Positions 7,565 through 56,886 of a DNA stretch of 64,000 nt are shown in pieces (the stretch's first letter is position 1; the number at the start of each line of letters is the position of its first letter). The DNA comes from Callorhinchus milii. Lineage: Eukaryota. The notes under the pieces were generated by a model. The model worked only from the letters and a program-made list of their open reading frames with translations. It ran no database searches and was not told the origin of the DNA. Both the position numbers and the translations under genes were made by a program. The stretch spans positions 93,560,001-93,624,000 of the forward strand of contig NW_024704742.1 of assembly GCF_018977255.1 (NCBI RefSeq), given 5' to 3'.

Positions 7565-7709
7565 CTGCCCATTCACCCATGCCACTGAAAAACGAATGAG
7601 GGACTTTGTGCCACCTGGTGAAATATAAATACCTCAGGCACTTCATTACTTTCAGGAAAAAATGCAAAAGGGTGAGAACCCCGAACGCAGTGAAGACGAG
7701 CTCCGACAT
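7565..7709 (-). CDS. HSD17B3: HSD17B3 coding exon 1 (MSELVFTAFGVLTLLHFFLKVMKCLRYLYFTRWHKVPHSFFSGMGEWA)
   Basis: ATG at 7709-7707 in GCAATG context, hydrophobic N-terminal anchor, phase-1 donor G|GTAAG. W..VP.SFF..MGEWA matches HSD17B3 (WKVLPKSFLRSMGQWA) better than the paralog HSD17B12. Confidence 0.88.
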
Positions 7710-8354: not shown

Positions 8355-8425
8355 AACTGGATGGTGGTACAATTTTTATTTCAAATTACCAGGGCATGAT
8401 GGCAGCCATAGATAGGCAAGTGTCC

Positions 8426-8476
<51 letters not shown>

Positions 8477-33512: not shown

Positions 33513-33642
33513 CAACAACAATAAATTACATTTGTATGTGCCTTTCACTTCAGGAAGACGTTCCAAGGCACTAGTCTACAGCAATTCCTGTGAAGTGCTT
33601 TGAGATGCTCTCCTGATATGAAAGGCCCAATAACAAATTCAA

Positions 33643-33935
33643 GTGGAGTCCTGTAGCTCAGTGGTTAGAACACTCGCTTTGCAAGTGAGAGACCTGAGTT
33701 CAATTCCAGGCAGGGCGAAACCTTGGGCAAGTTTCCTTACTCCACACGCCTAATAATAATCCCCCCAAAAACAATAATAAATTGGTCATTTTCAATCTAC
33801 GACCGATTGTGGGACATTGCTGTGCGCAATTGGCTGCCATGTCCGCCCACAAATATACAGTCAATTCACTTTACAGTGTGTTCTGTGAAGCGCTTTGGGA
33901 CGTCCTCCCGACGTGAAAAGCACTATATCAAATGC
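33643..33935 (+). mobile_element. Young tRNA SINE truncated just before its tail by the inverted-duplication junction
   Basis: Stops at TATATCAAATGC; lacks AAGG(ATT)n. Confidence 0.9.
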
Positions 33936-36879
33936 TAGAAGCAGAGAGTTACTGCTTCTCTATCTGACTCTCTGCAATTTGAGGCTGCACCAGCTTTAGG
34001 AATTGATGTCAGGCACTGATTCCATTTCCTGGTAGGCTCATTGTTGTCTTTAGATCCTGCACTGGAGAGCAATGAAAATTCAACTGCTTTTGCACTGGTA
34101 GCCAGGCAGACTTGATAATTGTCTAAGACCTATGTGTAATGCAGTATGAGGTGAGAAATGCAGGATGTGATGGGATGATCATCATCAGTTTAATTATCAT
34201 TCAGTGGCACTGCTGGGGATGTTCCTATGAAATCTATTCCGGGAGGACCAACTGCCCCCAGATTTTTGTACAAAATGTTTCTGTGTAAGCGTGGTTTCTG
34301 CAGCGATTAAACCATTGGGCAGCTATTTTGGCTCTGCCAATACATGGACGTAACATTTCAGTGCCAGTTTGAGGAACACTGCCTCAACTTGCATTAGGGT
34401 CACAGGAGGTCACAGAGGTGGGGTATTCCGTTTGAAATATTGGGTTGAAGCTTGTGACGTTTCATCATAATTATTCTGAGGAATGTGTCATGAAAGGTCA
34501 TAAATTTATCCCTCTTGGTAGCCTGGGTGTGAAAAGTTGCTGTATGAATCTCAGTCCATGTCCTAGGTTACCCTTTAGTGCTGTGGCACAGATCAGGGAG
34601 ATGCTTCTAGAAAGCAATGAAAGGTTTTGACTTCAATTAGATCATCAGTGTCTTATGTTTGACACAATGGTGCATCTCTTGAAATCTCACTGTGCCAATG
34701 ATTAAAACTTTCATTTTGGAGCTCAGTAAAATCTCAAGGTAATTGAAAGTGTCTCTGTTTAAGCGTGTAGGATTTAAGAGGAAGCGTGATGCATACGTAA
34801 GGGAGAAGAGAATATATGGGTTTAGGAGGCATGGAGGTGTTTGTGGACAGTAAAGAGGGGTATGGACTAGTTGTGCCCAATGGCCAGTGTCTGTCCTGTA
34901 TCATACTATGTAATTTCTTCAAAGTCTCACTGTTTCAGCAAGATCTAGGAGCCTCTCGGGTAATGTATAGCCAGCGCATAACTGCACTGTTACATTGTAC
35001 CATAGGCACTGTCTCACTCAATGTAAGCCACTCACTCCAACAGTCCTGTGAACTGAGCCAAATGCTCAATGTTGCTTGCTTTTACGCCATTCATTGGCCA
35101 TTGGGCACAGTTGGAGTGAAAGCGAAGAAGAGAACAAATGTGTCTGTGACAGGAATAATTAGTGCTCAGACAGCAGAGCATGGGTATGGGTTTCCCCAGA
35201 GCTTTGCTTTCTATTTGCTAAGTTGCACTCCATTTCCACTAGAGGTTACTGTGACACTAAGGGACAGGAAAGCTGCTTCTAACCATGCTCCTTGTACCTT
35301 GTCTAGCAGACAACACTTGAGGGAGTTGAAAATTTGGTAGTTTCATGAGTGCCTGTTGAATTAGTCATCACTTTTGTCCAGCAGATCTACATTGCTGAGC
35401 GGTATGCTTATTCTTACCAAAGGAACTGTGTGCCCTTTGATGACCTACTGGAATGGCTTTAAGCAAGTAATTCCCACACAGCAATGTCTCCAACATTTCC
35501 CATCATTGTTCCGACAACCAAAAGTAAGTACTGTACTACAAATGCGCTCAAATAAATTGCTCGATGTACAGGTGGAACGGAACACTTTGCGGAATGATCT
35601 ATGAAAGGGACATTTTCTTTCTTAAAATGTGTCTAGCAATTATTTTGGGTGGCGAGAGAGAATAGCCAAAAGAGCCACACATCGTATTTGTTAGAATAAC
35701 ACACATTGATGATTTTTGACACTCTTGTGTCGCTACATTCTGTGCTCGCAAATAAACAAAAGGTTTGCCAAATATCTTTTACACAGCTCGGGGGCTTTTA
35801 AAATGTTGAGCTGTTTGAAGGATGGGAAAAATTTAAATAGAAAATTGGTACAGCTTATTCTTAGAATGCTTATTCTATAGGAAGAAGTGGTTTCTTTTCC
35901 TACTGCACTAACCTATTGTATCAGACGGAGCTCGCTTCTGAATCTGCTGCAGTGTTTAACTTACTTAGTAAGTCCCATGATCAAGTATTTCCGGTCTTTC
36001 AGGTATAAAATGTTACATATGCTGTTTTTATACAGGACGACCCCGCTGTTAAGTCCCTCAGTAGAGTGTGAATTTTAGTTTAACAAGGGAGCCCTGTGGG
36101 AGTGTCAGAACTGTTTCCCAAGGTGTCAGCCTGGCTTGGTTGGTAGCATTCTTGCCTCTCTGTCAGAAGGTTGTGGGTTCAAGCCCCAAAGAAGGTCTTT
36201 GAGCATGCAGTCTGGCATGATACTCCATTCCTCCATGCCTGAGGAATGCTGTGTTGTCAGAAGTGTCGTTCTTCAGATGAGATGTTAAACTGAGGTCCTG
36301 CCCGTCTGATCAGATTCCGTGACACTATTTGAGTTTCTCCCAGGGTCGTGATCAACACTACCCCATATAAAATCGGCCATTCACTTCATGGCTGTTTGTG
36401 GGACACTGCTGAGAACAAACTGTCTGACACACTTGCCTACAAATACAATCACTGTACTGCACAGTAAAATTCTGTGAAGCACTTTGAGTTGTCTTGACAA
36501 CATGATTAGGTGCTATATTAAAGATTATTATTCATGTTCTTGTTATTGAATGTGGTACAATTTCAGCTCCTACTGGGGCCTGGTCAGCTCTTGGTACTAA
36601 AAATGGATGACTTTGAATTGTCAGGTCACTGCTAATGTTACTGGAGGCACACTGAACATGTGCTCTGTATGCAGGATGTACCACTTTTCACTAGTCAAGT
36701 GACATCAACAGACACTTGGGCATCACAACATTTATCAACATGCCTCCTGTTATTTGTGTGTAAGATTTTCCATGAGGAAATTTAACATTTTACAATAATA
36801 ATCGCACCAAATGAATGAATTTTCTATTTAAAAATTTCCATCCTTCAAAAAAATATAACATTTAAAAAAGGCCCTGATC
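33929..36879 (+). repeat. Left arm of 2.95-kb inverted duplication
   Basis: Reverse complement of 51913-54864. Identical predicted ORFs on opposite strands, e.g. 34816-35340(+) and 53452-53976(-). Confidence 0.97.
36124..36530 (+). mobile_element. Deu-type SINE, near full length (mirror copy ~52262-52668, minus)
   Basis: GTCAGCCTGGCTTGGTTGGTAGC head, CAGATGAGATGTTAAAC core, L2-like tail. Confidence 0.75.
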
Positions 36880-36964
36880 TACATTTAAAAGAATATTTGG
36901 CAAACCCTTTGGTTACTCTTCAGCATTTCAAGATTCTACCCTGTGAGGAAGGTGCTATATTAAA

Positions 36965-37420
36965 ACAGCAACTTGCATTTATATAGCGCCCTTCATGCAA
37001 GGCAGTGTCTCGGGGTGCTTAACAGTGGCTCCGACACTGAGCCAAGGGGAGGTGAAGGTAAGCATGTTCGAAGAGGAATGTCTTCAGGTGTGATCTAAAA
37101 ATGGGGAAGGAGGGGGCAAGGTGGAGGGATTGAGGGAGAGAATTCCAAGGTTTTGGGGCATAGTGGCTGAAAGCACGGGTGCCTAAGGTGGAGGGGACAA
37201 GGGGCAAGCAGGAGACAGAGCCAACCAAGTGGAGGCAGAGGGTGGTGGTAAGCAGGTCGGACAGGTAGGGAGGTACCAGGGCATGAAGGGATTTGAAGAA
37301 AAGTCTGAGAATTTTGAAGTTATTTTGTTCTGTGATAAAGAAACATTGGAGCCTGGTGAGGACTGGTGTGATGCGGTACGGAGTTTTGAGAGGGTGAGTA
37401 TACAGGCGGCAGAGTTTTTA
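36965..37420 (-). mobile_element. L2 3' fragment
   Basis: LGTRAFSHYAPKPWNSLP...LKTFLF. Confidence 0.8.
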
Positions 37421-38446
37421 AACAAGCTCTTCCATTTTGCATAGTTTGCCTTTTTTAGATCCTCCTTTCTTGATCTTTCACCTTTTATCCCAGTCCTTTT
37501 GCAGAAAATTAGCTTTATAAAATCATGTATACCATGATGTGTTGCAGAAGCACGTGAAGATCCAGAGTTTTGCATAAGATTTTCTTCAGGACACTGTGGG
37601 GGAAAGAAGATCTTGTCTTGTAAAAAAACGCACAAAAGTGGAGGACCTTCTGCCTCTATTAAATTGTCTATTAAATTATCTATTATCTATTAAATTGTAA
37701 GTCAACAGAGAGCGGAGCTGGTAGATTAGGAAAACTCAGTTAATTATACAATAATATGAGATGACATTGATGTAGGGCTGTAATGGGCAGTTTCAGAAAA
37801 AACACCAGAAATTACCCAGTGGATAATTAACGACTGGAACAGGTTATCAGGGAATGGTGATTGAGGACAGGACACTGTAGGGAAGTGCCTACTATCATTA
37901 ACAAAAAGCTTGATACTGTGATTAGAGGATGTTCAAGTGAGTATTTTGAAGGATTAAGAATCAAATGGGCCGAAGAGCCTCCTCATCCGAACTTCTCTTG
38001 TGATCTTGTGAATGAACTTACATTTTTCTAGCATTTTATGTGGAAAGTGCTTCATGAGGAATTACATTTCTTTCATCTATCATTTTGTGTTCATCAAGGT
38101 CCCACGAACCAATATGAGGTTAATGTTCAATTTATCTGGCGGATTGTTGACCAGGAAGTCAGGAGAGATTTTTCTCTTCAAATGGTATCATGGGAACTCT
38201 GACAACGCAGCACTCCTCCAACAAGGTCTGACTGCCTGTTCAGGTGTTAATTGAAAAGTGAGAAGACTTTCTCTTGGTGCTCTGAACAACAATCCCCCAG
38301 ATAAATTGGCCATTCACTTCATAAACTATGAGCAGATTTGCAGTCGCTGCAATTGTGAAGCACTTTAAGATGTTTGAGTGTTAGAGGTTCTATGCCAAAG
38401 GTTAGGATTATTATTGGTAATACATAAAGAACATATGTTCTGTAGA

Positions 38447-38838
38447 CAACAACAACAACTTGCACTTATATAGCACCCTCCATGCAGGGTAGCGTCTCAT
38501 AGCGCTTAACAGTGGCGGAGCCTGACTCTGAGCCAGGGGGAGGGGAGGTGGCCGTAAGCACGGTCGAACAGGAAAGTTTGAGGGAGGGTGGGTGTTCCAG
38601 AGCTTTGGGGTGTAGTGGCTGAAAGCACGACCTCTGATGGTGGGGTGTAGGGTGTGAGGGACAAGCAGGAGGCCGGTGCCAGTTGAGTGGAGGTGCCGGG
38701 TGGTGGATTGGGAAGTGAGGAGGTCAGAGAGGAAGGGAGGTGCCAGGAAGTGAATAGATTTGAACACAAAAGTGAGAATCTTGAAGTTGATCCGTTCGGT
38801 GATGGGGAGCCAGTGGAGCCTGGCCTAAGCTGGACTAC
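38447..38838 (-). mobile_element. L2 3' fragment
   Basis: LAPPFLSDLL...IRGRAFSHYTPKLWN; (GTT)n tail. Confidence 0.85.
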
Positions 38839-41800
38839 GCTTGACTTCTTTATGAACATCCCCTTTAAAGCCTTCAACAAAGTATATTTTCCAACAAAAC
38901 ACACAGTCACTACACTTTACAGTATATCCTGTGAAACTCTAATAGACGTGAAAGGTGCTGAATCAAATGTAAGGAATATTATTATAGTAAACTGATAACT
39001 CAACCCTGGTTTAACTTGTCATTACTACTTAAGTCATCATACTGTCAACATCCCAGTGGCATATATTTATGCATTTATACATATGCCTAACTCGCTACTC
39101 TGGATAACTTGTCACTGAGCCCTTTTCCCTTGGAGTGACGAGTTATCAGGATTTACTGTATTATTTCTTCTACGTATAGATCGTATACACGTTGTTGTTG
39201 ACTGATGTTCCGTTCTCCTTTTGCCCAGCAGAACCATTATCAGCTGCTTTGGGGGGATAACAAATGTACATGACCAAAAGGAGGTGTTGGGGGGGTGCTG
39301 GTGGGGGGGAGGACATTTGCTAGCAAGCTCTAGCAAGCTTCCTGTTACTTTGGCCAAGAAGCAACTTTGTAAGTGTTTGTTCTCTCATAAAGACAAATGT
39401 GGATACAAAGGGTTAATTCTAGAGGGAGGGGAAGAGAGAGACAATAAAATGTTTCCAAAATAAACAAAACTCAGGGAAAAATCATGCAGCTAGAAAACAC
39501 AGTAATATTTCAGCGTGAATTCTTTTGAAGTGAACATTCATAACAAATGAAAAGCAAAAAAACATATTTTATAAGGCAGGGTATTCACGAAACAGGAATT
39601 GACTGTGGTCTAACAACCATTTTGTGACTTGTTTCTGGCTGACGTGTGAATACATACATAGAGGCATTTCCTTGTTGCAAGTCACCTACGGACATGTCTG
39701 AGGCTATGTGGGTGGGCAGCAGTAAAGACAGTGTCTCATCCTATTCAGGATGTGCCCTCTGCTGCCGCACTTGTTTCAGGGCTGGTTGTTTGTTATTTAA
39801 ATAAATAAACTGGTTACTGTCTGAGGTTGGCCATGAATGGCCGTGCTTTGAAAGCCTAGCGAGGGCCTGTGTTGCCCACCCACTAAGCCTAACCTTCAGC
39901 TAATCACTGAGCAAATGTTCTCAGTGTACCCCGGGCCGCCATCTGCACTCACTTTTCCAATTAGAAATCCCTTCCTGACAGCAGCATTACAGTCATGAAC
40001 CAAAATAGGAAGGATTGCCATTGCTCGCATTTCCTTTCTATTACCATCTTGCTGACTCGCGAGCAATTAGCAAAGTCGGACTTTGTTTCCTGTGTCCGCA
40101 TGTGGGTTAAAAGAAAACTTGTAATTTTCTGGAGATTACAGAAATAAACAACCACAGAGAGGTAAAAAATGTCTGGCGTCTCCTAAAAAGCTGGGTATAA
40201 TACATACAATCTCCCCCCCCAGCCCCAGCCTCCATTTGCAGTTCTTTAAAGAAATCAGTGTTCTTTCTGTTTGATAAATGGGTACAATTATCAATCTTAC
40301 TGTAGAGTTTTACTGTTAATTTTAAAGAAGGTTTAGTCACAGTGTTTCCATTCATTTTCTCAATAAATAACAAAGCGTAATCGAAAATGGTTGTCGTTTC
40401 ATGAGAAAACATGTACAGGGCAGAATTTCTGGCATTCTAAGGCAATAGGGAAGAATCTCATCCCCTAGCGATGGGATTGCAATTGATTAGGAACGTAGGA
40501 AAAGGAGTAGACCATTCAGCCCATCCAATCTGTTTCAAATCATTCTATTTGATCATGGAAACTCTTTTAATTCCATTTTCCATTTTCCTTCCTTAGCCCT
40601 TATACCATTGTTTCCCTCCAATTTATCTATTTTAAGTTCCCTATCTTATGTTGGCCCACAATGTACACAGTCACTCCACTTACAGTAAATTCTGTGAAGC
40701 GCTTTGAGACAACTTCCTGATGTGAAAAGGCGCTACACCATACGTAAGGATTATCAAACATCCCGATCGATTTTGCATCTACAGCTGTTGATGGCTGTGA
40801 ATTCCACACTCTCACAAGCCTCTATGTGAAGAAATGTTTTCTGATCTCACTTGCAACTGGCCCAGCTCTACTTTTCTTGTCCCCTTGATTTGGATTAATC
40901 AAAATATTACAATATAATGGAAAGAAATTCCAATTAGTGTGTTGGTCTGTCCCATCGAAGTTACTTGCAGGCAAAACATATGTTCGGCTGGTCCTTCTTC
41001 AGTCTTAATCTATACACGGTTCTTGGTAGAATTTCCCTGTTGTGGATTTATAGCATTTTTGGGGGGTTTATTTCAGATTTCTGAAACGTTTGCTTTGTCC
41101 TGCTACAGGTTATACACAGCCAATGCTATGGAGACTACTTGAAGCCATCTGTTTGACAGCACTAAGCCTGACATACTGCACAGATAAAAAGAAACACTGC
41201 AGATTCTGGAAATCAGTAATAAAAAAAACGGAAAACACTGCAAATCCACAGAAGGTCAATTGCATTTGAAAAAGGAGATTGGAGGGCAGGATTGTGCTGG
41301 AACAAAAAAGACCATTACATTCTGTTTAGCGGGTCTTGATTTTAAGTGACTTTTCCCCTTATCTCACCCAGCTCTCACTTCCCCTATCTCCTTCATCAGC
41401 AAAGCCGAACCCCCCCCACCATTCTGAGTCTGTGATGACAGCCCCTTGTTGTTGACCTTCTGACCATATTGAATGAGTTGTTAGAATCCAGCTTATCAAT
41501 ACTTTCAGCGTCCAGAACACTTCAATAAGAAAAGTGCTTTATTGTCTCCCCTCCAGCCCCGCAGTGCTTCTCCAATCTTTTCTCAAAGTTCTAGATGTCC
41601 AATCTAGAAATTTCCTGTAATTCTCTCGCAATGTAATAATTCAAAACTATTTGGGGAAAAAAAACTTAAGACTGATTTGGGGAAAATACACACCAAATTC
41701 CATAGACCTTTTTTATGTGGTGCAAAAATTTGCCATGTTAGTAGAGTACACTGCTTAATTATATTTCATTAAAGTATGATCAAAGTGGGGGGGGGGGTGT

Positions 41801-43735
41801 GTGGAAGGAGGTTAGGATAAATAGAGTTGAGGTCCAGGTCAGCCATGATCTAATAGAATGGTGGAACAGGCTCAAGGGGCTGAATAGCCTACTCCTGTTC
41901 CTATGTCAGAGCTTCATTATTTTCCTATTTAAGCTCCACCTTTTCAGAAGCTTTGAACACCTTTGCTATTTAATACACGGCTACTTGGCCTTGGCATTAA
42001 CAAGTTACAGGCCACTGTTCTGTTCAAGGAACCATCATGGCGGAACTATTTAGGCACTTCCTCACATGCCAGACTGGGATTGGCTCTGTTGATTCCCACT
42101 TGCTGAAAGTCTTTAAGAAAGATATATGTCCCTCCCAGAATATTTGAGCATTATTTAACCAGTGGAAAAGAATTGGTGAATTAATGTGAAATCTTTCAAT
42201 TTTTGGCTTCGAGCATTTTGGGCCACACATATACTAATTTAGTCACCTACAGCTATACTTTCTCCAAAGACAAGGAATATATAATTCAGACATACACTGT
42301 ACTCTTGATCAAAGGGAGGATTTCACAACTCCTCTGGAATCCTCACAAGGACATCCATCTCTGAACCACCATACGTACCTGAGAGACCATTCAAATTCAA
42401 CAAAAAAAATCAGAGTAAAGTTATCCTACTAAGCATTTTCCAATGGTGATTCGGATCTGTGTCGGAACCTGTGTGGGTGTAGACCAGTCAATAAGTTAAG
42501 ATCATAACTGGTCCAGTTTTCAGTTTCCAACTACGTGTTCATTGAGAAAGCGCAGGTTGCAATTTTCACCTTCTTTATTGCCATAATTTGAATACTTGAT
42601 TCAGTATCCGGTCATGAACTTAGAACAAAAACTATCACCACAGGAGCTTCCAACTGACCAGCCAGCAAACTAAGGGTTAAAGCTAATAAGTCTTTAACAG
42701 CACAGTATATTTGTTGTTTATATTACTGCAGGAATCTGAAACAGAGCAAGGTCTTTATGTGTTTTAGGATTAAATAACAGCTCTGATTTACTGTTCCTCC
42801 CTGGTAACCAGGTGAAGACCTTCCGCATCTGTGCTATTTTCTTTTATGATACAGATAGGAAGCAGAGGTATATACAGCAACATTTAATAAGGTGCATAAT
42901 ACAGCTGACTGACATACACCAGGCAAAGTCTACTGCTAACTTCACGTCACACTCGTGTTTGCCTACATTATTCATTAATAACGTGGCCTTAGAAATTATA
43001 CCTCCCTGTTGCTTATCCAGCTAAGACCACGCTATTATTTAGCACTGGTTAGTAGGGACTGAACTGAGTGGGAAGATTCCCTACCCCCAGAGGGCGTTCT
43101 CCTTTAAGTCCTGCTGAAAACCAGGCTGGCTGGTCCATTATCAACAGTGCTTTGGAGTACTATGGGTCATGCTAGGGCAGTAACCAGACTATTGATTGAC
43201 TTGATTTTGATATTCTATTTCTCAGCACATCACTCTGGAGTCAGCTCGGCTCCAACGACCCCGCTTGCCTCCACCTCAAGACGTATAGTCACAAGTTGGA
43301 TGCTACAACATCTCAACAAGTGCAGGTTTAAGACCTTGCTAGTAGGTACCAGGGACTCTTTACGAGCCACATTATCATACAGTTGCAGACATGTTTGAAT
43401 GGATTCATTTCTGCAAACTGTGTAACAAAGTGATTCGCAGGATGGAGTGATTAGTTCCATCTAACCCAGCCTCCTGTTGAGAGCTTGCCCAGGTTAGACA
43501 GATCTTTATAGCAACCTGTGTGCCTCCCAGGAGCAGAGGCTTCAAGTGTACACCTTGCTGACATTTCTACCTGGTTCCCAAGTCAGTGGTTTAACTGATG
43601 GGTTAAATCTAGCCCTTGTCAGCTACAAATTATACCTGACAGTTTTGTGTATACAATAGACATTAACACAGCACATCTCTGAACAAATTTAAATCAAATG
43701 GCAATTGTATGGTCAGGAAAATTAGCTGTAACTGT

Positions 43736-44650
43736 TTCATAGAATCATAGAATTATACAACACAGAAGGAGGCCATCCGGCCCATCGTGTCCGTGCTGGC
43801 TCTTTGAAAAGAGCTATTCAATTCAATCCCACTCCCCCGCTCTCTCCCCATAGCTCTGCAAACTTGTCCTCCCCAAATAATTATCTACTTCTCTCTTAAA
43901 TGTTGTTATCAAATCGGCTTCCACCACACTTTCAGGAAATACATTCCAGATCCGAACAACTTGCTGTGTAAAAAAAATTCTTCTCACCTCCCCTCTGTTT
44001 CTTTTAACAACTATTTTAAATTGGTGTCCTCGGGTTAACGACCACCCGCCAGTGGAAATAGTTTCTCTTTGTTCACCCTATTGAATCCCCTCATAATTTT
44101 GAAAACTTCCATTAAGTCTCCTCTTAACCTTCTCTGCTCCAAGGAGAATAATCCTAGCTTCACTAACCTCTCCTGATAACTGAAGTTCCTCATTCCTGGT
44201 ACCATCCTGGTAAATCTCCTTTGCACCCTCTCCAATGCCTTATCATCCTTCCTAAAGTGTGGTGCCCAGAACTGAACACAGTCTCTAGATGTGGCCTAAC
44301 CAGTGTTTTATAAAGGTTTATCATAACTTCCTTACTTTTGTATTCTATGCCCCCATTTATAAATCCTAGTATCCCGTATGCTTTTTTAACAGCTTTATCT
44401 ACCTGTCTTGCCACCTTCAAAGATTTACATATATGAACCCCCAGGTCTCTCTGTTCCTTCACCCTCTTTAAGATTCTGTCATCAGCTTATATTCCCTCTC
44501 CTCATTCTTCCTCCCAAAATCATCACCACATTTATCCACATTAAGCTTCATCTTCCATGGGTTTGTCCATTTTACCAGTCTCTCTATGTCCATTTGCAGT
44601 CTGCTACTATCCTCCTCACTGTTTACTACTTTTCCTAGTTTGATATATGT
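43736..44650 (-). mobile_element. 5'-truncated CR1 LINE
   Basis: ERVQRRFTRMVPGMR...RRLRGDLMEVFK and LYKTLVRPHLE; (ATTCTATG)n tail at ~43736-43753. Confidence 0.92.
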
Positions 44651-45224
44651 TAAACTAATTGAAGGGATAAAGCTAATCTGTGAATGTCTTTTGCTTTGAA
44701 CCTGTTGCAATATTGGACTGAGCAAAGTAGAACAGTTGGCAAAACACCAGAGAGATTCTTCATTACTTTTAAATTGGTTAACACATGCCTAGCAGGGACA
44801 AATATAGCCAATCCCACCAGATTATATGGGCCAGATGGAATTTGTCTCAAGCGCGTTGCCCAAGGATGACGCATTTCTCAATTTATTTTTCCAAAAGATC
44901 AATATTTCCCATTAAACTGGGCAGATTGGTTTTCCATTTTCCCTGTAACTTTTTGTTCTGTGTTTGTTGCTGTGTTGTAGTTCTAATTTTAGCATTTTAA
45001 AAACTGGTAATGTATCTAATTAGATTTCCAATTCTTCCCCACAGTTGCCTCGCGGTCCTGGTCTTCTCCTGGTCCCCAAGCTCCTAGTGCTGGAGTATAG
45101 ATCCACATGAGCTGGTACCCCATCCCAGTGGCCATTATTCACGTGTGAGCCTTGCTATTGAGTGTTGGAGGGCATCACAACCAAGCCTGAGCCTCTTCTC
45201 ATTTGGCTGCCACAAAGACAGTGA

Positions 45225-45238
45225 CCAGTAGATGGTGC
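45225..45238 (+). promoter_or_regulatory. CTCF-like motif
   Basis: CCAGTAGATGGTGC. Confidence 0.35.
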
Positions 45239-45599
45239 TGTAGAGAGATGAGGAATCCTGGCTGTTTTGATTGCACTATTTTGTTTCCTCTATTGATGCT
45301 CCTGGGTGAGCTCTCGGGTCAGTAGCTCGAGCATCCTGCAAGACCAAAGTATCCCTTCCACCTGGGCAAATAAACAAGACATTTGTTAGGTTTGGCCTGA
45401 CTTCCTACTTAGGCCAGGATTTGCAGTAATGAGCAATATGCTCATGACATGATCTGATTCAAATGTTTAGAATAATGAAGAGAATTGATAAATTACGCAA
45501 GGGACAACTCCTTTTCTCTGAAAGAGGGAACCAAAAAAATGACATAATCTTCTAATCAAGCTGAGCCCATTAGAATTGAGATCAGAAAACATTTGCTCC

Positions 45600-48020
45600 T
45601 ACAACAACAGCAACAACAACAAAATTACATTTATAGAGCGTCTTTCACGTCGAGAGGACTTCCCAAAGCGCTGAACAGTCAAGTGTCGAGGTCCGAGCAT
45701 GGGGAGGGGTGGTGTAGGGGTGAGGGAAGGCAAAGAGGTGGGAGGGAGACCAAAGGCACGGTCGAAGAGAAGGGTCTTGAGACTGGCCTTGAAGGAGGCA
45801 AGGAAGGAAGCGAGGCGAAGGGACCGTGAGTTGGTGTCCCAGAGTGTGGGGGAAGAGAGGCTGAAAGCCCGGCCACCGATGGTAGGGCGGATTGGGCGGA
45901 AGACATGGAGCAGCCCGGAGCCCGATGAACAGAGGGAGCGGGCAGGTTGTTAGTGAGTCAGCAGGTCAGAGAGGTAGGAGGGGGCAAGGCCATGGATGGC
46001 CTTAAAGGTGAGGACGAGGATCTTGAACTCGATCCTCTGGGGAAAGGGGAGCCAGTGGAGTTGGGCGAGGGTGGGAGTGATGGGGTCACGGAGCCTGGTG
46101 CATGAGAGTACATGAGCTGCAGAGTTTTGGATGATCTGCAGCCCGTGAAGGGAAGAGTTGGCAAGGCCGATGAGAAGGGAGTTCCCATTATCGAGCCTTG
46201 AGGTGATGAATGCATGGGTGAGGGTTTCGGCAGTCTGAAGGGTGAGGCAGTGGTGGAGTCTGGCAATGTTATGGAGGTGGTGGTAGGCAGTACAGGTCAT
46301 GGCGCAGATGTAGGGGAGAAAGGACAGTTCAGGGTCAAACAAGACACCCAGGTTCCTGACTGGCTTAGTGAGGTTGAGTGTGCAGCCGTGGAGGCTGATG
46401 CTGCCAGCACCTGAGGTGCGGAGGTGCTGGTGCGATCCAATCAGGAGGGCCTCGGTCTTGCTGATGTTGAGTTGGAGAAAATTGTCCCTCATCCAGGACT
46501 TGATGTCGGACATGCAGTCAGTCAGGACGCCAATCGTGCTGGAGTTCAGGGTGGAGGCAGAGAGGTAGAGTTGAGTGTCATCCGCATACATGTGGAAATT
46601 TACCCCATGTCTGCGGATGACGTCACCTGGGGGGAGCACGTAGAGGGTGAAGAGGAGGGACCGAGGACAGAGCCCTGAGGAACACCACACGAGACGGTGT
46701 GGGGGCTGAAGGAGAAGATGTTTGCCGCGACAAAGTGGAGGTGGTGTGAAAGGTAGGACCTGAACCAGTCAAGGACAGAACCTTGAAGGTTGAGGTAGGA
46801 GTAGAGGCGGTGGAGGAGGATTGAGTGGTCCACGGTATCAAAGACGGTGGAGAGGTCGAGGAAGACGAGGAGGCAGAGAAAGCCCTGGTCACACATGGTC
46901 AGGATGTTGTTTGTGACCTTGACCAGAGACAACACGAAAACCCGATTGGAGAAGTTCATGGAGGGAGTGAGAGGAGAAGAAAAAGTGAAGCTGGGAGGCA
47001 CCGGCTCTCTCAAGGACCTTGGATAGGAAGGGGAGATTAGAGATGGGCCGGCAGCTAGATAGCTGTGACGGGTCAAGGGAGGGTTTCTTCAAGGTGGGGG
47101 TGATAGTGGCTGTTTTGAGGGGGGAAAGGAACAGTGCCAGATGACAGGGAGAGGTTAATGATATCGGCGAGTAGTGGGGCAAGGAGGTGGAGCTGGGATT
47201 TAAGGAAAGGGGTAGGGATAGGGTCGAGGGAGCAGGTGGTGGACTTCATGGAGGTTACCGTGTTGAAGACAGAGGAGGGGGTGACAGGTTCAAAGGTGTG
47301 GAGGGAGGGATGGGTAATTGTCGGATGGGTAATTGTGTGGGGTGGGGTAGGGAGGGGGTGGAAGTTGGGGGGGCAGTGGCAGCTGAGCAGATTCCCTTGA
47401 TTTTGGACTTGAGGAAGTCCAGCATTTTCTCGCAATGAGAATCAGAGGAAAGTGTCTGCGAGGCATGTCGGGGAGGGTGGAGGAGCCGGTTAGTGGTGGA
47501 GAACAGGAGCCTGGGATTGCCTTTCACCTCCAGGATTAACCTGGAATAGAAGGATGATTTGGCTGAGGCGAGAGCAGAACGGTAGTTCTTGATGAGGTCC
47601 AGCCAGATGTGGCAGTGGACAATTAGGCTGGATTTGAGCCAAGTGCGTTCGGCAGCCCGCACCTGGCCCTTAAACAAGCGGAGGTGGCTGGTGAACCAGG
47701 GTGAGGATCGGGAATAGGAGGCAGTTCGGGAGGTGAGGGGGGCAAGAACGTTGAGTGCGTTGGAGATGGTGCTGTGGAGATTAGTGAGTGCAGCGAATGG
47801 GTTGTTGCAAGAGGTGGGGCAGAGGGGGAGGAGATCAGAGGACTCCAGGGCAGCGGAGAGGTATTGCGGGGAGATCTTCTTCCACGGGCGGTAGAAGATG
47901 GTGATAGGTTTGGAGGCAGTGGGGAGAGGGATATGGGAGTTGAGGGAGATGAAGTGGTGGTCAGAGATGACCTCGTCAGTGATGGTGACATCCAAGACAC
48001 TGAGGCCACGGGTGATCAAT
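45600..48020 (-). mobile_element. L2 LINE, ~2.4 kb of ORF2 (endonuclease end + RT) and 3' tail, frameshifted
   Basis: ISDHHFI, SPWFT, TCSLDPIPT, RPISNLPFLSKVLE, LDLSTVFDTVDH, GVPQGSVLGP, MYADDTQLY, LHWLPFPQRIEFK; (GTT)n tail. Confidence 0.95.
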
Positions 48021-48184
48021 CCTACCGAGGATTGTGCGGCTGTACTGCCTCAGAAGGTTGTAAAGACAGAATCAATCAAGTTTTTTTTTTAAAAATGGAG
48101 ATAAACACTGGGAGTTACAGGAAGAAAGGTGGATACATTAGATTAAAAGATCTGCCATGATTTTAATAAATGGTGGAATAATTT

Positions 48185-48393
48185 TGTTTTGTTTTTTGAT
48201 TAGCTGGGTATCTGACACATGCGGAAACTCATTCACCATGTTTAAGAGCATCCAAGCCAAACTGAGAATTCCCACCTACACATGGAAATTGCAGAGATAG
48301 GTTGTTGGAATGGAAGGCACACTCTCTCTCTCTGGAGGGACTCATCCTGCTTACCTAATTCCAGAAAGTATTAGACGCAGGTTGGCAAGAGCC
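48185..48393 (-). mobile_element. Unclassified interspersed repeat, copy 3
   Basis: Homologous to 23896-24220. Confidence 0.75.
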
Positions 48394-49094
48394 AGAAATT
48401 GGGAGCAAACTGGTGGAATGAGTTTGATGGGCTAAATGTCCCTCTCCTATTCTTGTATTCCTTTGAAAATATTTTTAAAATAAACCTCTGCAACACTATC
48501 CCTTTCACGAGTTATAACATTGTCAAAATAAATAATTGGAGAAGTAAATGGTTATTTTTTTACAGGGGCCTTGTGGGGTTGCTAACATTTTATAGGAGTC
48601 ATATCTGCTTTTTTTTGGAAAAAAAATGTGCTCCTTTAATTGCACATATCTGTAATGTACACATAATATTTCACTTTTATTTATTTAGTGTTTAACATAA
48701 CCTCCAAGATTCACATGAATGCCTGGCAAAAAAAAGTATCAAAATTCTCAATCTGTTAAGTTCTGAATCCATAAAGATGACCTTTCAGAGGTTGAGCTCT
48801 GTATGGGTCACTAGACTAGATATGGAGAACATATGAAAGGGAAATGACTTTCTCGGTCCAGCATTATGTCTTCATGTTTATTGTCTCCATACTTCAGGGA
48901 TTTATTGATGACTGACCAGCCAGCCTGGCTTGTCAGCAGGACTTAGAGAAACAGACCAGTCACGAGGGAGCTGGGATACTTCCCACTTAGCTCCTGATAA
49001 CCTGATAGACAAAGCCGTAACAGATAGAATAGTCTTAGCTGGACAGGCAGAGGAAAACTTGCCAGTGTTTGTAACGCTGAACTGCGAGGATTTT

Positions 49095-49470
49095 ATAATA
49101 ATAATAATCCTTGCATTTGCTATAGCGCTTTTCACGTCTTCTAGATGTCTCAAAGCGCTTCACAGAATATACTGTAAAGGTAGTTGATTGTATATTTGTG
49201 GGCGAAATGCAGCAGCCAATTGGGCACAGCAGTATCCCACAAACAGTCGCGGATTGAGTAACCAAATTATTATTGTTTCTTTTTTTGAAGGATTATTACC
49301 CCCGGAAAAGCAATCCCCAATTGACTAACAACCGGGTTCCTACTTACTGCTAGGTAAATAGAGCTGTGTGGAGCAAGGAAACTTGCCCAACATTTCACCC
49401 TGCCGGGAATCGAACCCAGGTCTCTCGCTTGTGAGACGAGTGCTCTAACCACTGAGCTACAGAACTCCAC
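49095..49470 (-). mobile_element. tRNA SINE, long subfamily, full length
   Basis: Head with GGTTCGATTCC B box, extra internal segment, (ATT)n tail. Confidence 0.9.
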
Positions 49471-50429
49471 AATAGTTTGATAGGATAAAAGGGTACAATT
49501 TTTGTTAAACTCGAAGAAACATCCCTATTACGTAATTTGGGCCCCCAAGTCATGGCTCTTGCCAACATGCACTTAAACTCTCCTGGATTAGGTAAACAGA
49601 GAGCGAGTGTGAGCTCCATAGTGGAATATGTGTATCCTCCTGTAGTTTGGTGTAAAGTCTCTTAAGCAGGGTCATGGGTTTCCACATGTATCAAATAATA
49701 TGGTAACTAACTCCCACCCCTCTGTAAACCTTTTAATGTTGAATATCGAATAGAGCATATAACTCTTTGGTATAAATATACAGAAGTAAATTCTCTCCTC
49801 CAGATCTGGAGTGGTTTAGATTTGCATTTATACTTTTGGGGTTGGGAGAGGATTAATTGTACGTCAATGTTCATGAATTTAAATGAAAACAAACAGTTAG
49901 AACAGCTGAAATGCATCTTCATTTATTGTACATCAATGAAAGGCCATCAGTTCAATACTTAAATATATCACAAAATAAACCATTCTACAGAACTTTGTTT
50001 TTTTTAAAAAAATTGTACAAAGTAAACATTACTCTCAGGATAAAAGGGTACAAATTTGTGAAGAGCAGAGTGCTGGGAATCTGCCCGCAACTTTGCTGAA
50101 CCACAAAATGGAAACATTTGGAAAGAGGTTTTGATGAGGGGAGTCATCTTCCTCTCATGATATAAATCGAAAATAATACTATGATTTTATGAAGCTAATA
50201 ATCAGAGTAATAATCACATACAGTATTTATGTGATTCGGACAATCTATGTGAGGGTGTCCTTTCATTTGGTCTTCATCTCCATTTTTGGTTTTATTCTTC
50301 ATCTCTCTATTCCCCCCTTTTTATCCTTCATTTGAACTCCCTGTAGCCAGCAATGTTCCTCCACTGGAAGCAATAGAGCAGCAGGAACTAGGGAAAACAT
50401 GTTCAAATATCTGTTCAATGCTTACTGAT

Positions 50430-51655
50430 TGATTCCTGAATGAGAGATAACTTTCTCCAGCTGAATGTCGACAATACAGATACTCTCTTGCTTGGCCTTG
50501 CTCAGTGACTTCTCACCTCAGGCGCTGACATCAATCTACAGGAGTCCTGTAGCTCAGTGGTTAGAGCACTCGCTTTGCAAGCGAGAGACCTGAGTTCAAT
50601 TCCAGGCAGGGCGAAACCTTGGGCAAGTTTCCTTACTCCACACGCCTAATAATAATCCCTCCAAAACAAAACCAAAAACAATAATTAAATTGGTCATTTT
50701 CAATCTACGACTGTTTGTGGGACATTGCTGTGCGCAATTGGCTGCCGCGTTCGCCCACAAATATACAGTCAATTCACTTTACAGTGTGTTCTGTGAAGCG
50801 CTTTGGGACGTCCTCCTGACGTGAAAATCGCTATATCAAATGCAAGGATTATTATTATTATTATTATTACACGGATGCACTCTCCACCTCACAGAGCCAG
50901 TGCAGAACCTGTTCAAAACACAAAATACTGCAGATACTCCCAGCATCTGTTGAACCTGTTTGACTTGTTCGACTCTCAACTGTCCTTTAAATCCCACATC
51001 TGTGCCCTGATCCGTTCAGCTTTTCCCCACCTCAGCAACATTGCCTGTCTCCACCACTACATCTCCCCTCAGGCCACCGAGGCCCTTTTATCCATGCTTT
51101 TGTCATGTCCAGGCCTGCTAATGCAATTCTCTGCTCACTGGGTTTCCCAACTCTTCTTTCCACAAGCTACAGGCCATTCAGAAATCTGTAGCTCGTGTCC
51201 TTTCCCAGACTAGGCTTCAACCCTATCCTAGCCTGGCTCCACTGACTTCCCGTCCCCAAAGGAATTGAGTTCAATTTTTGATTACCTCCATGAACATGCC
51301 CTCCCTCACCTCTGCAAGTTTCTTAAACCACCAGCCCACGTGCTCCCTCCACTCAGCATGTACTGGCCTGGTTCATGTCCCCTCAGCCTGCCCACCTTCA
51401 ACCTTTCTGCCGCCATTCTCTGGAACTCTATTCCAGAGTCCCTTTGTCTCGCTGCTTCCCTTGCCTCCTTCAAGGTCAGTCTCAAGACCTTGCTTTTGGA
51501 GTGTGCCTTCGGTCAACAACAGCAACTTGCATTTATATTGCGTCCTCCACGCAGGGCGATGTCTCAGAGGGCTTAACAATGGTGGAGCCCAAGGCTGAGC
51601 CAGGGGGAGGGGGAAAATGACAGTCAAAGGGGAAGGAGGGGGCGAAAGAGGAATA
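50430..51655 (+). mobile_element. Degraded L2 fragment interrupted by a young full-length tRNA SINE (50541-50868), followed by an opposite-strand L2 tail
   Basis: L2 motifs ctccagctgaatgtc, FDSQLSFKSHI, LWNSIP; SINE with intact head and tail. Confidence 0.85.
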
Positions 51656-51656
51656 T

Positions 51657-51914
51657 AATAATAATAATCCTTGCATTTGATATAGCACTTTTCACGTCGG
51701 GAGGACGTCCCAAAGCGCTTCACAGAACACACTGTAAAGTGAATTGACTGGATATTTGTGGGCGAACGCGGCAGCCAATTGCGCACAGCAGTGTCCCACA
51801 AACAGTCGTAGATTGAAAATGACCAATTTATTATTGTTTTTGTTTTTGGAGGGATTATTATTAGGCGTGTGGAGTAAGGAAACTTGCCCAAGGTTTCGCC
51901 CTGCCTGGAATTGA
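51657..51914 (-). mobile_element. Young tRNA SINE truncated within its B box by the inverted-duplication junction
   Basis: Ends at CCTGGAATTGA|TCAGGG; head missing. Confidence 0.9.
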
Positions 51915-54864
51915 TCAGGGCCTTTTTTAAATGTTATATTTTTTTGAAGGATGGAAATTTTTAAATAGAAAATTCATTCATTTGGTGCGATTATTATTGT
52001 AAAATGTTAAATTTCCTCATGGAAAATCTTACACACAAATAACAGGAGGCATGTTGATAAATGTTGTGATGCCCAAGTGTCTGTTGATGTCACTTGACTA
52101 GTGAAAAGTGGTACATCCTGCATACAGAGCACATGTTCAGTGTGCCTCCAGTAACATTAGCAGTGACCTGACAATTCAAAGTCATCCATTTTTAGTACCA
52201 AGAGCTGACCAGGCCCCAGTAGGAGCTGAAATTGTACCACATTCAATAACAAGAACATGAATAATAATCTTTAATATAGCACCTAATCATGTTGTCAAGA
52301 CAACTCAAAGTGCTTCACAGAATTTTACTGTGCAGTACAGTGATTGTATTTGTAGGTAAGTGTGTCAGACAGTTTGTTCTCAGCAGTGTCCCACAAACAG
52401 CCATGAAGTGAATGGCCGATTTTATATGGGGTAGTGTTGATCACGACCCTGGGAGAAACTCAAATAGTGTCACGGAATCTGATCAGACGAGCAGGACCTC
52501 AGTTTAACATCTCATCTGAAGAACGACACTTCTGACAACACAGCATTCCTCAGGCATGGAGGAATGGAGTATCATGCCAGACTGCATGCTCAAAGACCTT
52601 CTTTGGGGCTTGAACCCACAACCTTCTGACAGAGAGGCAAGAATGCTACCAACCAAGCCAGGCTGACACCTTGGGAAACAGTTCTGACACTCCCACAGGG
52701 CTCCCTTGTTAAACTAAAATTCACACTCTACTGAGGGACTTAACAGCGGGGTCGTCCTGTATAAAAACAGCATATGTAACATTTTATACCTGAAAGACTG
52801 CAAATACTTGATCATGGGACTTACTAAGTAAGTTAAACACTGCAGCAGATTCAGAAGCGAGCTCCGTCTGATACAATAGGTTAGTGCAGTAGGAAAAGAA
52901 ACCACTTCTTCCTATAGAATAAGCATTCTAAGAATAAGCTGTACCAATTTTCTATTTAAATTTTTCCCATCCTTCAAACAGCTCAACATTTTAAAAGCCC
53001 CCGAGCTGTGTAAAAGATATTTGGCAAACCTTTTGTTTATTTGCGAGCACAGAATGTAGCGACACAAGAGTGTCAAAAATCATCAATGTGTGTTATTCTA
53101 ACAAATACGATGTGTGGCTCTTTTGGCTATTCTCTCTCGCCACCCAAAATAATTGCTAGACACGTTTTAAGAAAGAAAATGTCCCTTTCATAGATCATTC
53201 CGCAAAGTGTTCCGTTCCACCTGTACATCGAGCAATTTATTTGAGCGCATTTGTAGTACAGTACTTACTTTTGGTTGTCGGAACAATGATGGGAAATGTT
53301 GGAGACATTGCTGTGTGGGAATTACTTGCTTAAAGCCATTCCAGTAGGTCATCAAAGGGCACACAGTTCCTTTGGTAAGAATAAGCATACCGCTCAGCAA
53401 TGTAGATCTGCTGGACAAAAGTGATGACTAATTCAACAGGCACTCAAGAAACTACCAAATTTTCAACTCCCTCAAGTGTTGTCTGCTAGACAAGGTACAA
53501 GGAGCATGGTTAGAAGCAGCTTTCCTGTCCCTTAGTGTCACAGTAACCTCTAGTGGAAATGGAGTGCAACTTAGCAAATAGAAAGCAAAGCTCTGGGGAA
53601 ACCCATACCCATGCTCTGCTGTCTGAGCACTAATTATTCCTGTCACAGACACATTTGTTCTCTTCTTCGCTTTCACTCCAACTGTGCCCAATGGCCAATG
53701 AATGGCGTAAAAGCAAGCAACATTGAGCATTTGGCTCAGTTCACAGGACTGTTGGAGTGAGTGGCTTACATTGAGTGAGACAGTGCCTATGGTACAATGT
53801 AACAGTGCAGTTATGCGCTGGCTATACATTACCCGAGAGGCTCCTAGATCTTGCTGAAACAGTGAGACTTTGAAGAAATTACATAGTATGATACAGGACA
53901 GACACTGGCCATTGGGCACAACTAGTCCATACCCCTCTTTACTGTCCACAAACACCTCCATGCCTCCTAAACCCATATATTCTCTTCTCCCTTACGTATG
54001 CATCACGCTTCCTCTTAAATCCTACACGCTTAAACAGAGACACTTTCAATTACCTTGAGATTTTACTGAGCTCCAAAATGAAAGTTTTAAATCATTGGCA
54101 CAGTGAGATTTCAAGAGATGCACCATTGTGTCAAACATAAGACACTGATGATCTAATTGAAGTCAAAACCTTTCATTGCTTTCTAGAAGCATCTCCCTGA
54201 TCTGTGCCACAGCACTAAAGGGTAACCTAGGACATGGACTGAGATTCATACAGCAACTTTTCACACCCAGGCTACCAAGAGGGATAAATTTATGACCTTT
54301 CATGACACATTCCTCAGAATAATTATGATGAAACGTCACAAGCTTCAACCCAATATTTCAAACGGAATACCCCACCTCTGTGACCTCCTGTGACCTTAAT
54401 GCAAGTTGAGGCAGTGTTCCTCAAACTGGCACTGAAATGTTACGTCCATGTATTGGCAGAGCCAAAATAGCTGCCCAATGGTTTAATCGCTGCAGAAACC
54501 ACGCTTACACAGAAACATTTTGTACAAAAATCTGGGGGCAGTTGGTCCTCCCGGAATAGATTTCATAGGAACATCCCCAGCAGTGCCACTGAATGATAAT
54601 TAAACTGATGATGATCATCCCATCACATCCTGCATTTCTCACCTCATACCTCATTACACATAGGTTTTAGACAATTATCAAGTCTGCCTGGCTACCGGTG
54701 CAAAAGCAGTTGAATTTTCATTGCTCTCCAGTGCAGGATCTAAAGACAACAATGAGCCTACCAGGAAATGGAATCAGTGCCTGACATCAATTCCTAAAGT
54801 TGGTGCAGCCTCAAATTGCAGAGAGTCAGATAGAGAAGCAGTAACTCTCTGCTTCTAGCATTTG
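51913..54864 (-). repeat. Right arm of 2.95-kb inverted duplication
   Basis: Reverse complement of 33929-36879. Confidence 0.97.
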
Positions 54865-54940
54865 TTTCTAGAATAAAGCTACAGTGCTTGTTGGTTATTG
54901 TTTTCTTGAAATGTAGTGTTCAATTTGAAATGAAATCCTT

Positions 54941-55265
54941 ATAATAATAGTAATAATCCTTGCATTTGATATAGCGCTTTTCACGTCGGGAGGACGTCCC
55001 AAAGCGCTTCACAGAACACACTGTAAAGTGAATTGACTGTATATTTGTGGGCGAACGCGGCAGCCAATTGCGCACAGCAGTGTCCCACAAACAGTCGTAG
55101 ATTGAAAATGACCAATTTATTATTGTTTTTGTTTTTGGAGGGATTATTATTAGGCGTGTGGAGTAAGGAAACTTGCCCAAGGTTTCGCCCTGACCTGCCG
55201 GGGATTGAACTCAGGTCTCTCACTTGCAAAGCGAGTGCTCTAACCACTGAGCTACAGAACTCCAC
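54941..55265 (-). mobile_element. Young tRNA SINE, full length
   Basis: Family head, body and tail. Confidence 0.9.
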
Positions 55266-56886
55266 TGGAATGCGGTCATCTTCCCACTCCATCCTATTTG
55301 CCCTCCCCCCACTCCCTCAACTGTCTAGCACCTCGGGATGTTCTCCTGACGTGAAAGGTGCTGTGCAATTTGTTGTTGTTGATGTTCTTGTTGATAACCT
55401 GTACCTAATATGATAGTCATTCACTGCCTGCAGATGTGTACCAGCACAAGAGACTATGCTCCTGGGAGAGTTGTGCATTACAGAGATTGCAAATGGCAAT
55501 TTCGGGACAGATATCAGGACGTTTTTGATTACTCAGAGAGTAATTAACGACTGATGGGTGTGATGGGAAGATGGTAAGGTGGGTTCTCTGGAAGGATGAG
55601 ATCCGATAGGCTAAAGGGCTTTCTTCATTCAAACCCATCTTGTGATCTTGCATAATTATGGGTGCATGTGACTTTTTGTGATATCTTGTGTAAGGAATTT
55701 ATTTGACCATTACCCAACAGGCTCCAATTCAATGAAATCCTGGTAGTGGAGCAATTCAGGTTTGAATCTATCTGGGCCTGGGACCAGTTTAAGGAAAAGA
55801 AGGTTCTGCTGCCTGAATATCAGGGCATAGATTCTCTCCTACAATTCTTCACATTGTAAACTCAGTAACCTTAGTGCATTATCCATTGCTGGGAATAGCA
55901 GATCAATGACAAATCTGTCAATCCACTCAGACAAATGCTAGTGAGTAATTTTGTGAGGTTGAACTCAGTTCCTAAGTGCTTTATGGCTGAAGGAGCAAGA
56001 CATTTTTCTGCTGATCACCCCAGACTCCAGTGCTGTCTGATGCAAGTGCAAAGGGAAGCTGGTTAATTATCATCCAATTAATTTTTTAGATGTAATTTAA
56101 ATTGCTTTAGTATTAGTTTTGTCTTGACAATATTTTGAACATCAATTTTCTCTTTATTAAATATACTTTACATTTGGACCACCTACTGATGAATGTGTTA
56201 GTAAAGGGAGTTAGTCCAAGGTAGAAGAAAATACCTTCATACTTGACACCAGGGTCATTTCTGAGTATTCTGGTCCTAAATGCATCTTACTTGTCAATTA
56301 GATGAAAAAATAACGCCGTTTTAGAGTTACAAGAGTTCATTTCTAGACCATTTGATTTGTTGAAGGTTGAAAGAGCCATATTACACCTACTTAGGGTTAG
56401 TACATAGAAATGTATAGGAATTGAAAAGACTATTGAGATCTATCTAATTCTTCCTAAAGTGTACATCTAGAACTGTCAATTGTTACTATTTAAGAGTGAT
56501 GGTGGTTCAAACAGATTTCAAGACATAATTTATATTTGATGCAGACTTTATTGAACACGGCTTGTAAGCTACATCACCATTGATCTGTTCCCAATGTGGA
56601 CACCTCTGAAACATCACTGCAGCAGGAGAGGACTGCACAGATTACAGTTGTGAAGGGAATCCTTTAGGGCAGATACCAGTAGTATTCTTTCTACCAAGAG
56701 GGTATTGAACAGTTGCCAGCAAGGTGGATTGAGGTAAGGACACTGGACTCATTTAAGAAACAGCTTGTTGCTGTAATGGGAGGGTGATATATTGGGCATT
56801 CATCACAATCGGGCTCGACTACGCAAACTCTATGCTTTTCGGTATCCCCAATTCCTCCCTCCACAGCCTGCAGGTCATCTAGAACT

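Follow-up and report, generated by a model that had tools for sequence, protein, structure and literature searches.

In primates, the LCR16a segmental duplication is SINE-associated, with a SINE at 9 of 14 boundaries and SINEs at both the donor and the acceptor (PMC7419210), and oppositely oriented Alu pairs mediate inversions in humans (Balachandran et al. 2022, PMC9675761). Many Drosophila inversions carry inverted duplications at one breakpoint (17 of 29, of which 12 are one-sided; Ranz et al. 2007, PMC1885836), and such inversions are catalogued among human complex variants as INVdup and delINVdup (PMC5338099). Human NAHR inversions are flanked by repeats of 654 bp to 24.2 kb with >90% identity, and most of them recur (PMC6748972). 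All of these studies are drawn on here for the passages cited. Here, we describe a locus in Callorhinchus milii, the elephant shark, at which a SINE-bounded segment has gained a copy, as seen from its two copies in the assembly and from contig depth.

The window, i.e., the whole stretch of DNA that was analyzed, comprises 64,000 nt of contig NW_024704742.1 (assembly GCF_018977255.1, positions 93,560,001 to 93,624,000). Self-BLAST of the window returned a single minus-strand match of 2952 columns (33929-36879 versus 54864-51913) with 99.56% identity, 12 mismatches and 1 gap, and a global alignment of the two arms gave the same 12 substitutions and the 1-nt indel (34702/54091). A preliminary description, made from the sequence alone, had reported reverse-complementary arms with about a dozen substitutions and one 1-nt indel, and both alignments agree with it. 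The inverted repeat is far above chance expectation. The arm differences look like real mutations, since 9 of the 12 substitutions are transitions and 4 of the 12 stand in a CpG context. Five of the 12 lie within 215 bp at the outer end, a clustering that did not reach significance in a scan (P 0.10), so that gene conversion between the arms is not claimed.

The arms are located upstream of HSD17B3, with 26.2 kb between the start codon and the left arm (Table 1). That the gene downstream of the arms is steroidogenic, as stated previously, was borne out by the 48-aa identity of exon 1 and by tblastn for two more exons, while the exon 1 ORF (7566-7709) had no match in the atlas search and exon 3 gave only weak SDR matches against the PDB. 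A crude splice-site scan yielded 40 candidates, none of them recognizable in the arm or spacer. Pfam analysis of 148 arm and spacer ORFs (147 of the 169 listed plus 1 more, the 22 omitted lying mostly within the LINE) returned reverse transcriptase twice and 4 weak matches below the cut-off, in a coding search that exons of <36 aa would escape. The duplicated segment is non-coding, and no function is indicated.

Table 1 Features of the HSD17B3 upstream locus (positions in the window; J1-J3, junctions)
Feature	Position	Strand	Basis
Further HSD17B3 exons	near 4565-4618 and 2303-2413	-	tblastn
HSD17B3 coding exon 1	7566..7709	-	48 aa, 100% identical to P0001/P0002, the Callorhinchus milii proteins that bear the name testosterone 17-beta-dehydrogenase 3
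3' part of an older SINE-type element, ending just before its tail; SINE1 insertion site	33560..33642	+	Aligned to 3' ends of older tailed copies (4393, 28760, 31829, 38964)
SINE1, young tRNA-Ala-headed SINE without tail; donor-side SINE	33643..33935	+	Alignments, Rfam
J1, single CAAATGC, probably left when 104 bp were deleted between a pair of 7-nt direct repeats, both kept in the right copy	33929..33935	+	Alignments
Left arm, putative donor (ancestral) copy; non-coding, old repeat remnants inside	33929..36879	+	Self-BLAST, global alignment, Pfam
One of the two halves (other half 35753-35846, 80%) of an old 99-bp inverted repeat, spanning the left arm/spacer boundary J2	36818..36915	.	Alignments
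Spacer, 15,033 bp; remnants of SINEs and LINEs, among them a LINE piece with reverse transcriptase near 45950-48050; search for host coding exons negative	36880..51912	.	Global alignment, splice-site scan, Pfam
SINE2, body with tail, broken off within the B box; putative 3' part of the acceptor SINE	51655..51912	-	Alignments
Right arm, putative new inverted copy; inner end is junction J3 (2-nt exact microhomology)	51913..54864	-	Self-BLAST, global alignment, contigs
104-bp block, right side only: unique flank, SINE tail and second CAAATGC; probably the original SINE1 tail and 3' flank, copied with the arm	54865..54968	-	Alignments
SINE3, full-length; putative chimera of acceptor SINE head/body and SINE1 3' end (switch within 54962-55053)	54944..55265	-	Alignments

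SINE1, SINE2 and SINE3 belong to one tRNA-Ala SINE family and are 92-98% alike, so that the same family is found at the donor and acceptor ends; Rfam recognized only 4 tRNA-like SINE heads. A tRNA-derived SINE, which may not be the same family, covers 7-8% of the C. milii genome according to the section cited (PMC1845163). The earlier description of the junctions stands in the alignments of the arm ends and SINEs: the outer end of the left arm starts in the last 7 nt (CAAATGC, 33929-33935) of the tail-less SINE1, the inner end of the right arm adjoins a SINE cut in its B box (SINE2), where the microhomology is 2 nt long when exact and ~7 nt when gapped, and these two junction SINEs, said to differ at about 10 sites, show 10 differences over 234 aligned sites, and one gap. 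A GATC at J3 raised the question of a Hi-C ligation artefact, which was set aside because the SINE side lacks such a site.

SINE3, which was absent from the preliminary description, has its CAAATGC exactly 104 bp outside the right arm. The inverted similarity runs past the arms through the SINEs (33637-33938 versus 55271-54959, 92%), and in the alignment of the left and right sides SINE1 stands opposite SINE3, followed by one 104-bp gap on the left, bounded by the exact 7-mers, and then by the arm. The chance of finding a young, correctly oriented SINE tail ≤104 bp from an arm end is roughly 0.0065, a post hoc figure based on the density in the window. J1 is better read as a local 104-bp microhomology deletion in the donor copy, which would have removed the SINE1 tail and ~80 bp of flank.

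The flanks of the SINEs point in the same direction. The 5' flank of SINE1 is the tail-less end of an older SINE, and among the 20 SINE tails in the window the flank that restores this older element best is that of SINE3 (score 9.1, rank 1 of 20), whereas the flank of SINE2 does so worst (-12.0, rank 20 of 20); a second AAGGATT directly after the tail is present in SINE3 only, among the 20 tails. A stretch of 152 bp is the same in SINE2 (51752-51903) and SINE3 (55041-55192), the sole identical pair of the 28 pairs among 8 young copies, with 3 differences in the next-best pair and 7 sites plus a gap between SINE1 and either of the two. Outside this block, 1 site separates SINE3 from SINE1 and 2 sites separate it from SINE2, in a 3' stretch that is near the consensus. 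Overall, 4 substitutions in 240 sites (2 at the B box and 2 near the 3' end) and a 5-nt insertion separate SINE2 from SINE3, and it is at the coordinate where SINE2 is cut that the B box of SINE3 shows its 2 substitutions and the 5-nt insertion. The head flank of SINE3 and the tail flank of SINE2 have the 5 nt ATTCC in common, the longest such match for that flank among the 20 tails. The partner LINE of the young tRNA-Ala SINE is presumably L2-like. Target duplications of the L2 clade peak at 3-5 bp in the data cited (PMC4245944). This target-duplication argument counts little, since the score of the ATTCC match is equalled by 16 of 155 mismatched head/tail pairs; among 7 intact copies, only 2 reach it.

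The polarity of the inner boundaries was indicated by the old 99-bp inverted repeat, which aligns across J2 with a score of 118 and stops at the inner end of the right arm with a score of 75. Since the repeat is continuous over J2 but broken off at J3, the former is the ancestral boundary and the latter the derived one, an order that fits both an inversion of the spacer and a spacer that stayed in place.

Based on these sequence relations, we favor, with a probability of about 0.68, a SINE-guided inverted duplication in which ~3.1 kb was copied in inverted orientation into one SINE, through a microhomology switch in the B box and a homeologous SINE-to-SINE switch, and in which the spacer kept its orientation. 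Ancestrally, the older SINE end would have been followed by a tailed SINE1, then ~80 bp, the arm and the spacer, and last by one oppositely oriented acceptor SINE. Pol III-bound tRNA boxes pause forks. Copying may have stalled or broken within the acceptor SINE at the B box; the microhomology, 2-nt exact or ~7-nt gapped, would then have allowed a switch to the opposite strand, at the arm's inner end 15 kb away. From there, 3.05-3.15 kb would have been copied back through the arm, the 80 bp and the SINE1 tail into SINE1, before a return to the acceptor SINE by SINE/SINE homeology somewhere in 33844-33935 / 54962-55053. The predicted outcome is an acceptor SINE body that is present twice, as SINE2 and SINE3, around the new inverted copy, with the spacer unreversed; a 104-bp deletion between the two CAAATGC, later or on the other homolog, would have cost the left copy its SINE1 tail along with the 80 bp. 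We infer the ancestral order, the direction and number of the switches, and a replication-based (MMBIR/FoSTeS-like) process over end-joining repair.

Several observations speak against this course of events. The putative ancestral order rests on repeat archaeology within the window, built after looking at the data. SINE2 and SINE3 consist mostly of consensus bases, and near-master copies could be identical by descent from the master, while the differences between the two exceed those predicted by the 0.4% divergence of the arms. A second event, the deletion, is required and is apparently common to all four of the sequencing runs considered below. By eye, an old LINE remnant next to the tail of SINE2 is not continued beyond the head of SINE3.

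The possible, if unlikely, alternative is that of the preliminary description, in which 15 kb were inverted and 2.95 kb duplicated at the breakpoint on one side, by staggered breaks or template switch, an event of the INVdup/delINVdup type. Formerly unique sequence does lie in an inverted duplicate on both sides of the spacer, as in INVdup variants, and an ancestral J2 with a derived J3 fits an inversion equally well; a reversal of the spacer relative to the ancestral order is not indicated by the evidence at hand, which is indirect and internal to the window. The 7-nt microhomology at J1 is accommodated and no separate deletion event is needed, at the price that the mirror position of SINE3 and the ranks of the SINE1 flank (1 of 20 with SINE3, 20 of 20 with SINE2) become mere coincidence. 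In its plain form the inversion also leaves the 152-bp identity of SINE2 and SINE3 unexplained and has to assume lost sequence; its variants take SINE1, SINE2 and SINE3 as independent, or SINE2 as the tail of SINE1 with a body copied from SINE3. The frequent Drosophila inversions with inverted duplications and the catalogued human ones are precedents, but the staggered-break duplications in Drosophila have a median of 321 bp, with none above ~1.9 kb in the part of the study cited (PMC1885836). Since J1 can be read as a local deletion and SINE2 pairs with SINE3, the left flank, left arm and spacer would be contiguous ancestral sequence. What remains of the preliminary description is one ancestral copy that was duplicated recently by repair or template switch, with SINE-associated microhomology junctions. 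Its inverted spacer is disfavored by indirect, internal evidence that joins the left flank, the 104-bp block, the arm and the start of the spacer as one ancestral run, and the loss of sequence that it assumed between the junction SINEs gives way to a pairing of SINE2 with SINE3, not SINE1, and to a local deletion at J1.

Further evidence on the two copies came from assembled contigs of four runs (X1-X4) from four samples of one study, each with 90-95% of the arm's words, which were compared over 36810-56000. The 24 runs listed bore a single species label and included no RNA, from which nothing follows for expression. Across 27 spacer contigs, the window differed from the contigs at 60 of 24,282 bases (0.25%; five arm-overlapping records were excluded, and the table favors long contigs), as compared with 12 of 2951 (0.41%, 95% interval 0.21-0.71%) between the arms; the two values do not differ significantly (Poisson P 0.068, Fisher P 0.125). 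As arm divergence is not significantly above spacer divergence, either the duplication dates from about the time of allelic variation or from slightly before it, or the arms come from two homologs, or the arms have been exchanging sequence. The duplication would in any case be more recent than the acceptor SINE, which is near the family consensus.

The second of these options belongs to a two-step route, in which ectopic recombination between SINE1 and the acceptor SINE gave an inverted allele, and a microhomology join of the ancestral and inverted homologs at J3 then gave the present chromosome, with the spacer still in ancestral orientation and the arms, taken from different homologs, starting out with allelic divergence. 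We regard this route as improbable. It predicts the same SINE mosaic, the 104-bp deletion could simply be an older allele, and its first step has a precedent in the oppositely oriented human Alu pairs (PMC9675761, in the passages cited). It also requires an extra, unobserved allele, and the allele-level divergence of the arms, which agrees with it, is likewise expected from a near-coalescent age or from gene conversion between the arms.

The depths of the arm contigs were 18.7 in X1, 15.8 and 10.3 in X2, 15.7 in X3, and 16 and 17.1 in X4, against median depths of the spacer contigs of 11.3 (X1, n=9), 7.9 (X2, n=7), 7.9 (X3, n=8) and 7.1 (X4, n=8), corresponding to arm/spacer ratios of 1.65 (X1), 2.0 and 1.3 (X2), 2.0 (X3), and 2.25 and 2.4 (X4); contig depth is a rough measure and not a copy number, and the spacer contigs were picked by hand from the tables. 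Contigs end exactly at 54864 in all four runs (listed for X2 and X3, and via the distances to the contig end for X1 and X4), as expected for an arm with two outward continuations. One contig of X1 (51893-52407) crosses J3 with 20 letters of the SINE and does not stop at 51913, where a branch is expected, an observation that counts against the favored duplication. No listed contig of X1-X4 bridges J2 or J3 by 31 letters on each side. At the five listed sites of arm difference, the left-arm base was found in 13 and the right-arm base in 7 of 20 run-site cases. The change 53695 C>T is present in all four runs but in neither arm of the window, which is only a hint. We conclude that the arm is present in two copies, common or fixed among these animals and compatible with all four of these other data sets; the contigs, in which the arms are collapsed, do not give the orientation of the spacer, and the rows shown of the joint and loose-end tables, where SINE and LINE matches predominate, yielded nothing on the four arm ends.

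These data bear on the concern that the two alleles of one arm were written twice by the assembler. Arm divergence is near the allelic level, J2 and J3 lack a 31-letter bridge in the listed contigs, which derive from short reads, and one of the four runs could itself be the source of the assembly. The preliminary description had expected such an artefact to show as arm depth at half the flanking level with no reads across both junctions; the arm contigs were at 1.3-2.4x the spacer in all four runs. With arm contigs at about twice the spacer depth that stop exactly at the outer end in each run, J3 with 20 letters of its SINE in a contig of X1, and left-type and right-type bases both present across the runs, we consider such an artefact very unlikely, and it would not create microhomology junctions together with a 152-bp SINE duplication. 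A 21-kb DNA transposon (Polinton- or foldback-like) with 2.95-kb terminal inverted repeats, suggested by size and terminal symmetry only, can practically be dismissed, since no informative target-site duplication was found (only the palindromic AT, GC, TA and CTAG, within the arm), the 148 arm and spacer ORFs include no transposase, integrase or polymerase family and only a LINE reverse transcriptase, the depth of 10-19 at the arm ends means about two copies, unlike a dispersed family, and at the inner ends an old repeat and a SINE are interrupted.

The locus warns against taking every inverted repeat with two odd junctions as the trace of an inversion; J1 appears here to be a small later deletion. 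With 2951 bp and 99.56% identity, the arms fall within the range of repeats at NAHR inversions (above ~0.65 kb, >90% identical), and the inverted pair is a possible NAHR substrate, such that toggling of the spacer is plausible by analogy with the human data. If the spacer toggles, this would be a structural polymorphism near the gene of a testosterone-forming enzyme. A far-reaching conjecture, to which we give little credence, is that the abundant tRNA-Ala SINE acts like Alu in primates, with forks that stall at the B box and restart via neighboring SINEs, routinely pasting inverted kilobase copies close by, and that the pair, young and apparently common, flips the 15-kb segment 29-44 kb upstream of HSD17B3 recurrently, untagged by SNPs and with altered expression; if true, a stalled fork would have left its scar in the altered B box of SINE3. 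Among the papers listed, mainly from open journals, on this locus and on elephant-shark structural variants, no such case was found in this lineage.

Among inversions flanked by inverted repeats, the closest human geometry is that of HsInv0114, with 2.7/2.7-kb repeats and 14.7 kb, which was judged to be of single origin in the passage cited from the 2014 study (PMC3961182); unlike such human inversions, the elephant shark locus showed no second orientation of the spacer in the short-read contigs, in which the arms are collapsed. Staggered-break inversions (PMC1885836) and human INVdup/delINVdup variants (PMC5338099), as far as described in the passages cited, have a similar end product, a formerly unique segment in two inverted copies, and the duplications at the ends of herring inversions are similar in appearance (PMC11499932, in the part cited). 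However, the data here do not support an inverted spacer, the duplicated segment exceeds the Drosophila size range, and its junctions lie in repeats, which is rare in the part of the Drosophila study cited. LCR16a, in the passages cited (PMC7419210), is alike in that unique sequence was duplicated with a SINE exactly at the insertion junction; it differs from the elephant shark case, where only ~3.1 kb, two copies and no gene are involved, and where the acceptor has a short duplication of the SINE body, whereas LCR16a sites lose 3-80 kb. Alu-Alu and other TE-mediated rearrangements (PMC9675761, in the passages cited) join a diverged pair of SINEs (92% here) through short homology into a chimeric element at the junction, as SINE3 may be in this case, and include extra small deletions and insertions near the breakpoints that were attributed to MMBIR-like repair. 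The differences are that a fish-type tRNA-Ala SINE in a chimaera is involved, and that one putatively homeologous and one microhomology junction are combined, with the inverted copy pasted 15 kb away. The kind of event is already known, an Alu-type repeat-mediated duplication and an ordinary repair accident, of which the three neighboring SINEs are a well-preserved record, showing how a segmental duplication formed in the chondrichthyan elephant shark lineage.

A tandem duplication lies closer to the HSD17B3 promoter than the inverted repeat does; it begins at a CCAAT motif ~170 bp 5′ of the start codon. The unique parts of its two units differ at 5 of 1923 sites and by three gaps, and both units are headed by a C-rich 17-bp minisatellite, which is 0.44 kb long in unit one and 2.3 kb long in unit two. 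The tandem duplication is about as young as the inverted repeat, and it could also represent a haplotype duplication in the assembly. Farther upstream of HSD17B3, a crude scan of ~49 kb (14600-64000), which short exons would escape, recognised neither a host coding exon nor SLC35D2, the neighbour expected from vertebrate synteny.

Within the inverted repeat, position 53695 is T in all four short-read contig sets and C in both arms of the window, and this T may be a variant that the two arms share through conversion, or one that is frequent in a single arm. The B box of SINE3, the SINE just outside the right arm, carries a 5-nt insertion and two substitutions at the SINE coordinate matching the cut in SINE2, which adjoins the arm's inner end; these changes are possibly a scar of the duplication event.

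Additional sequence features of the window
Feature	Positions	Identity	Distance apart
Tandem duplication	7877-14576
Unique parts of the tandem units	8355-10317; 12648-14576
Young SINE	25606-25750
200-bp dispersed repeat, three copies	23897-24097; 48187-48394; 61956-62172	77-78%
Old 99-bp inverted pair	35753-35846; 36818-36915	80%	~1.16 kb
SINE3 B box	55193-55207

Among the other repeats, a young SINE has its 72-bp 3′ end in tandem duplicate, as from slippage during reverse transcription, and an unnamed dispersed repeat showed no kinship to the main SINE in a self-BLAST. An old inverted pair, one half of which crosses the boundary of left arm and spacer, encloses an old SINE, and the two halves may mark where a decayed miniature DNA element began and ended.
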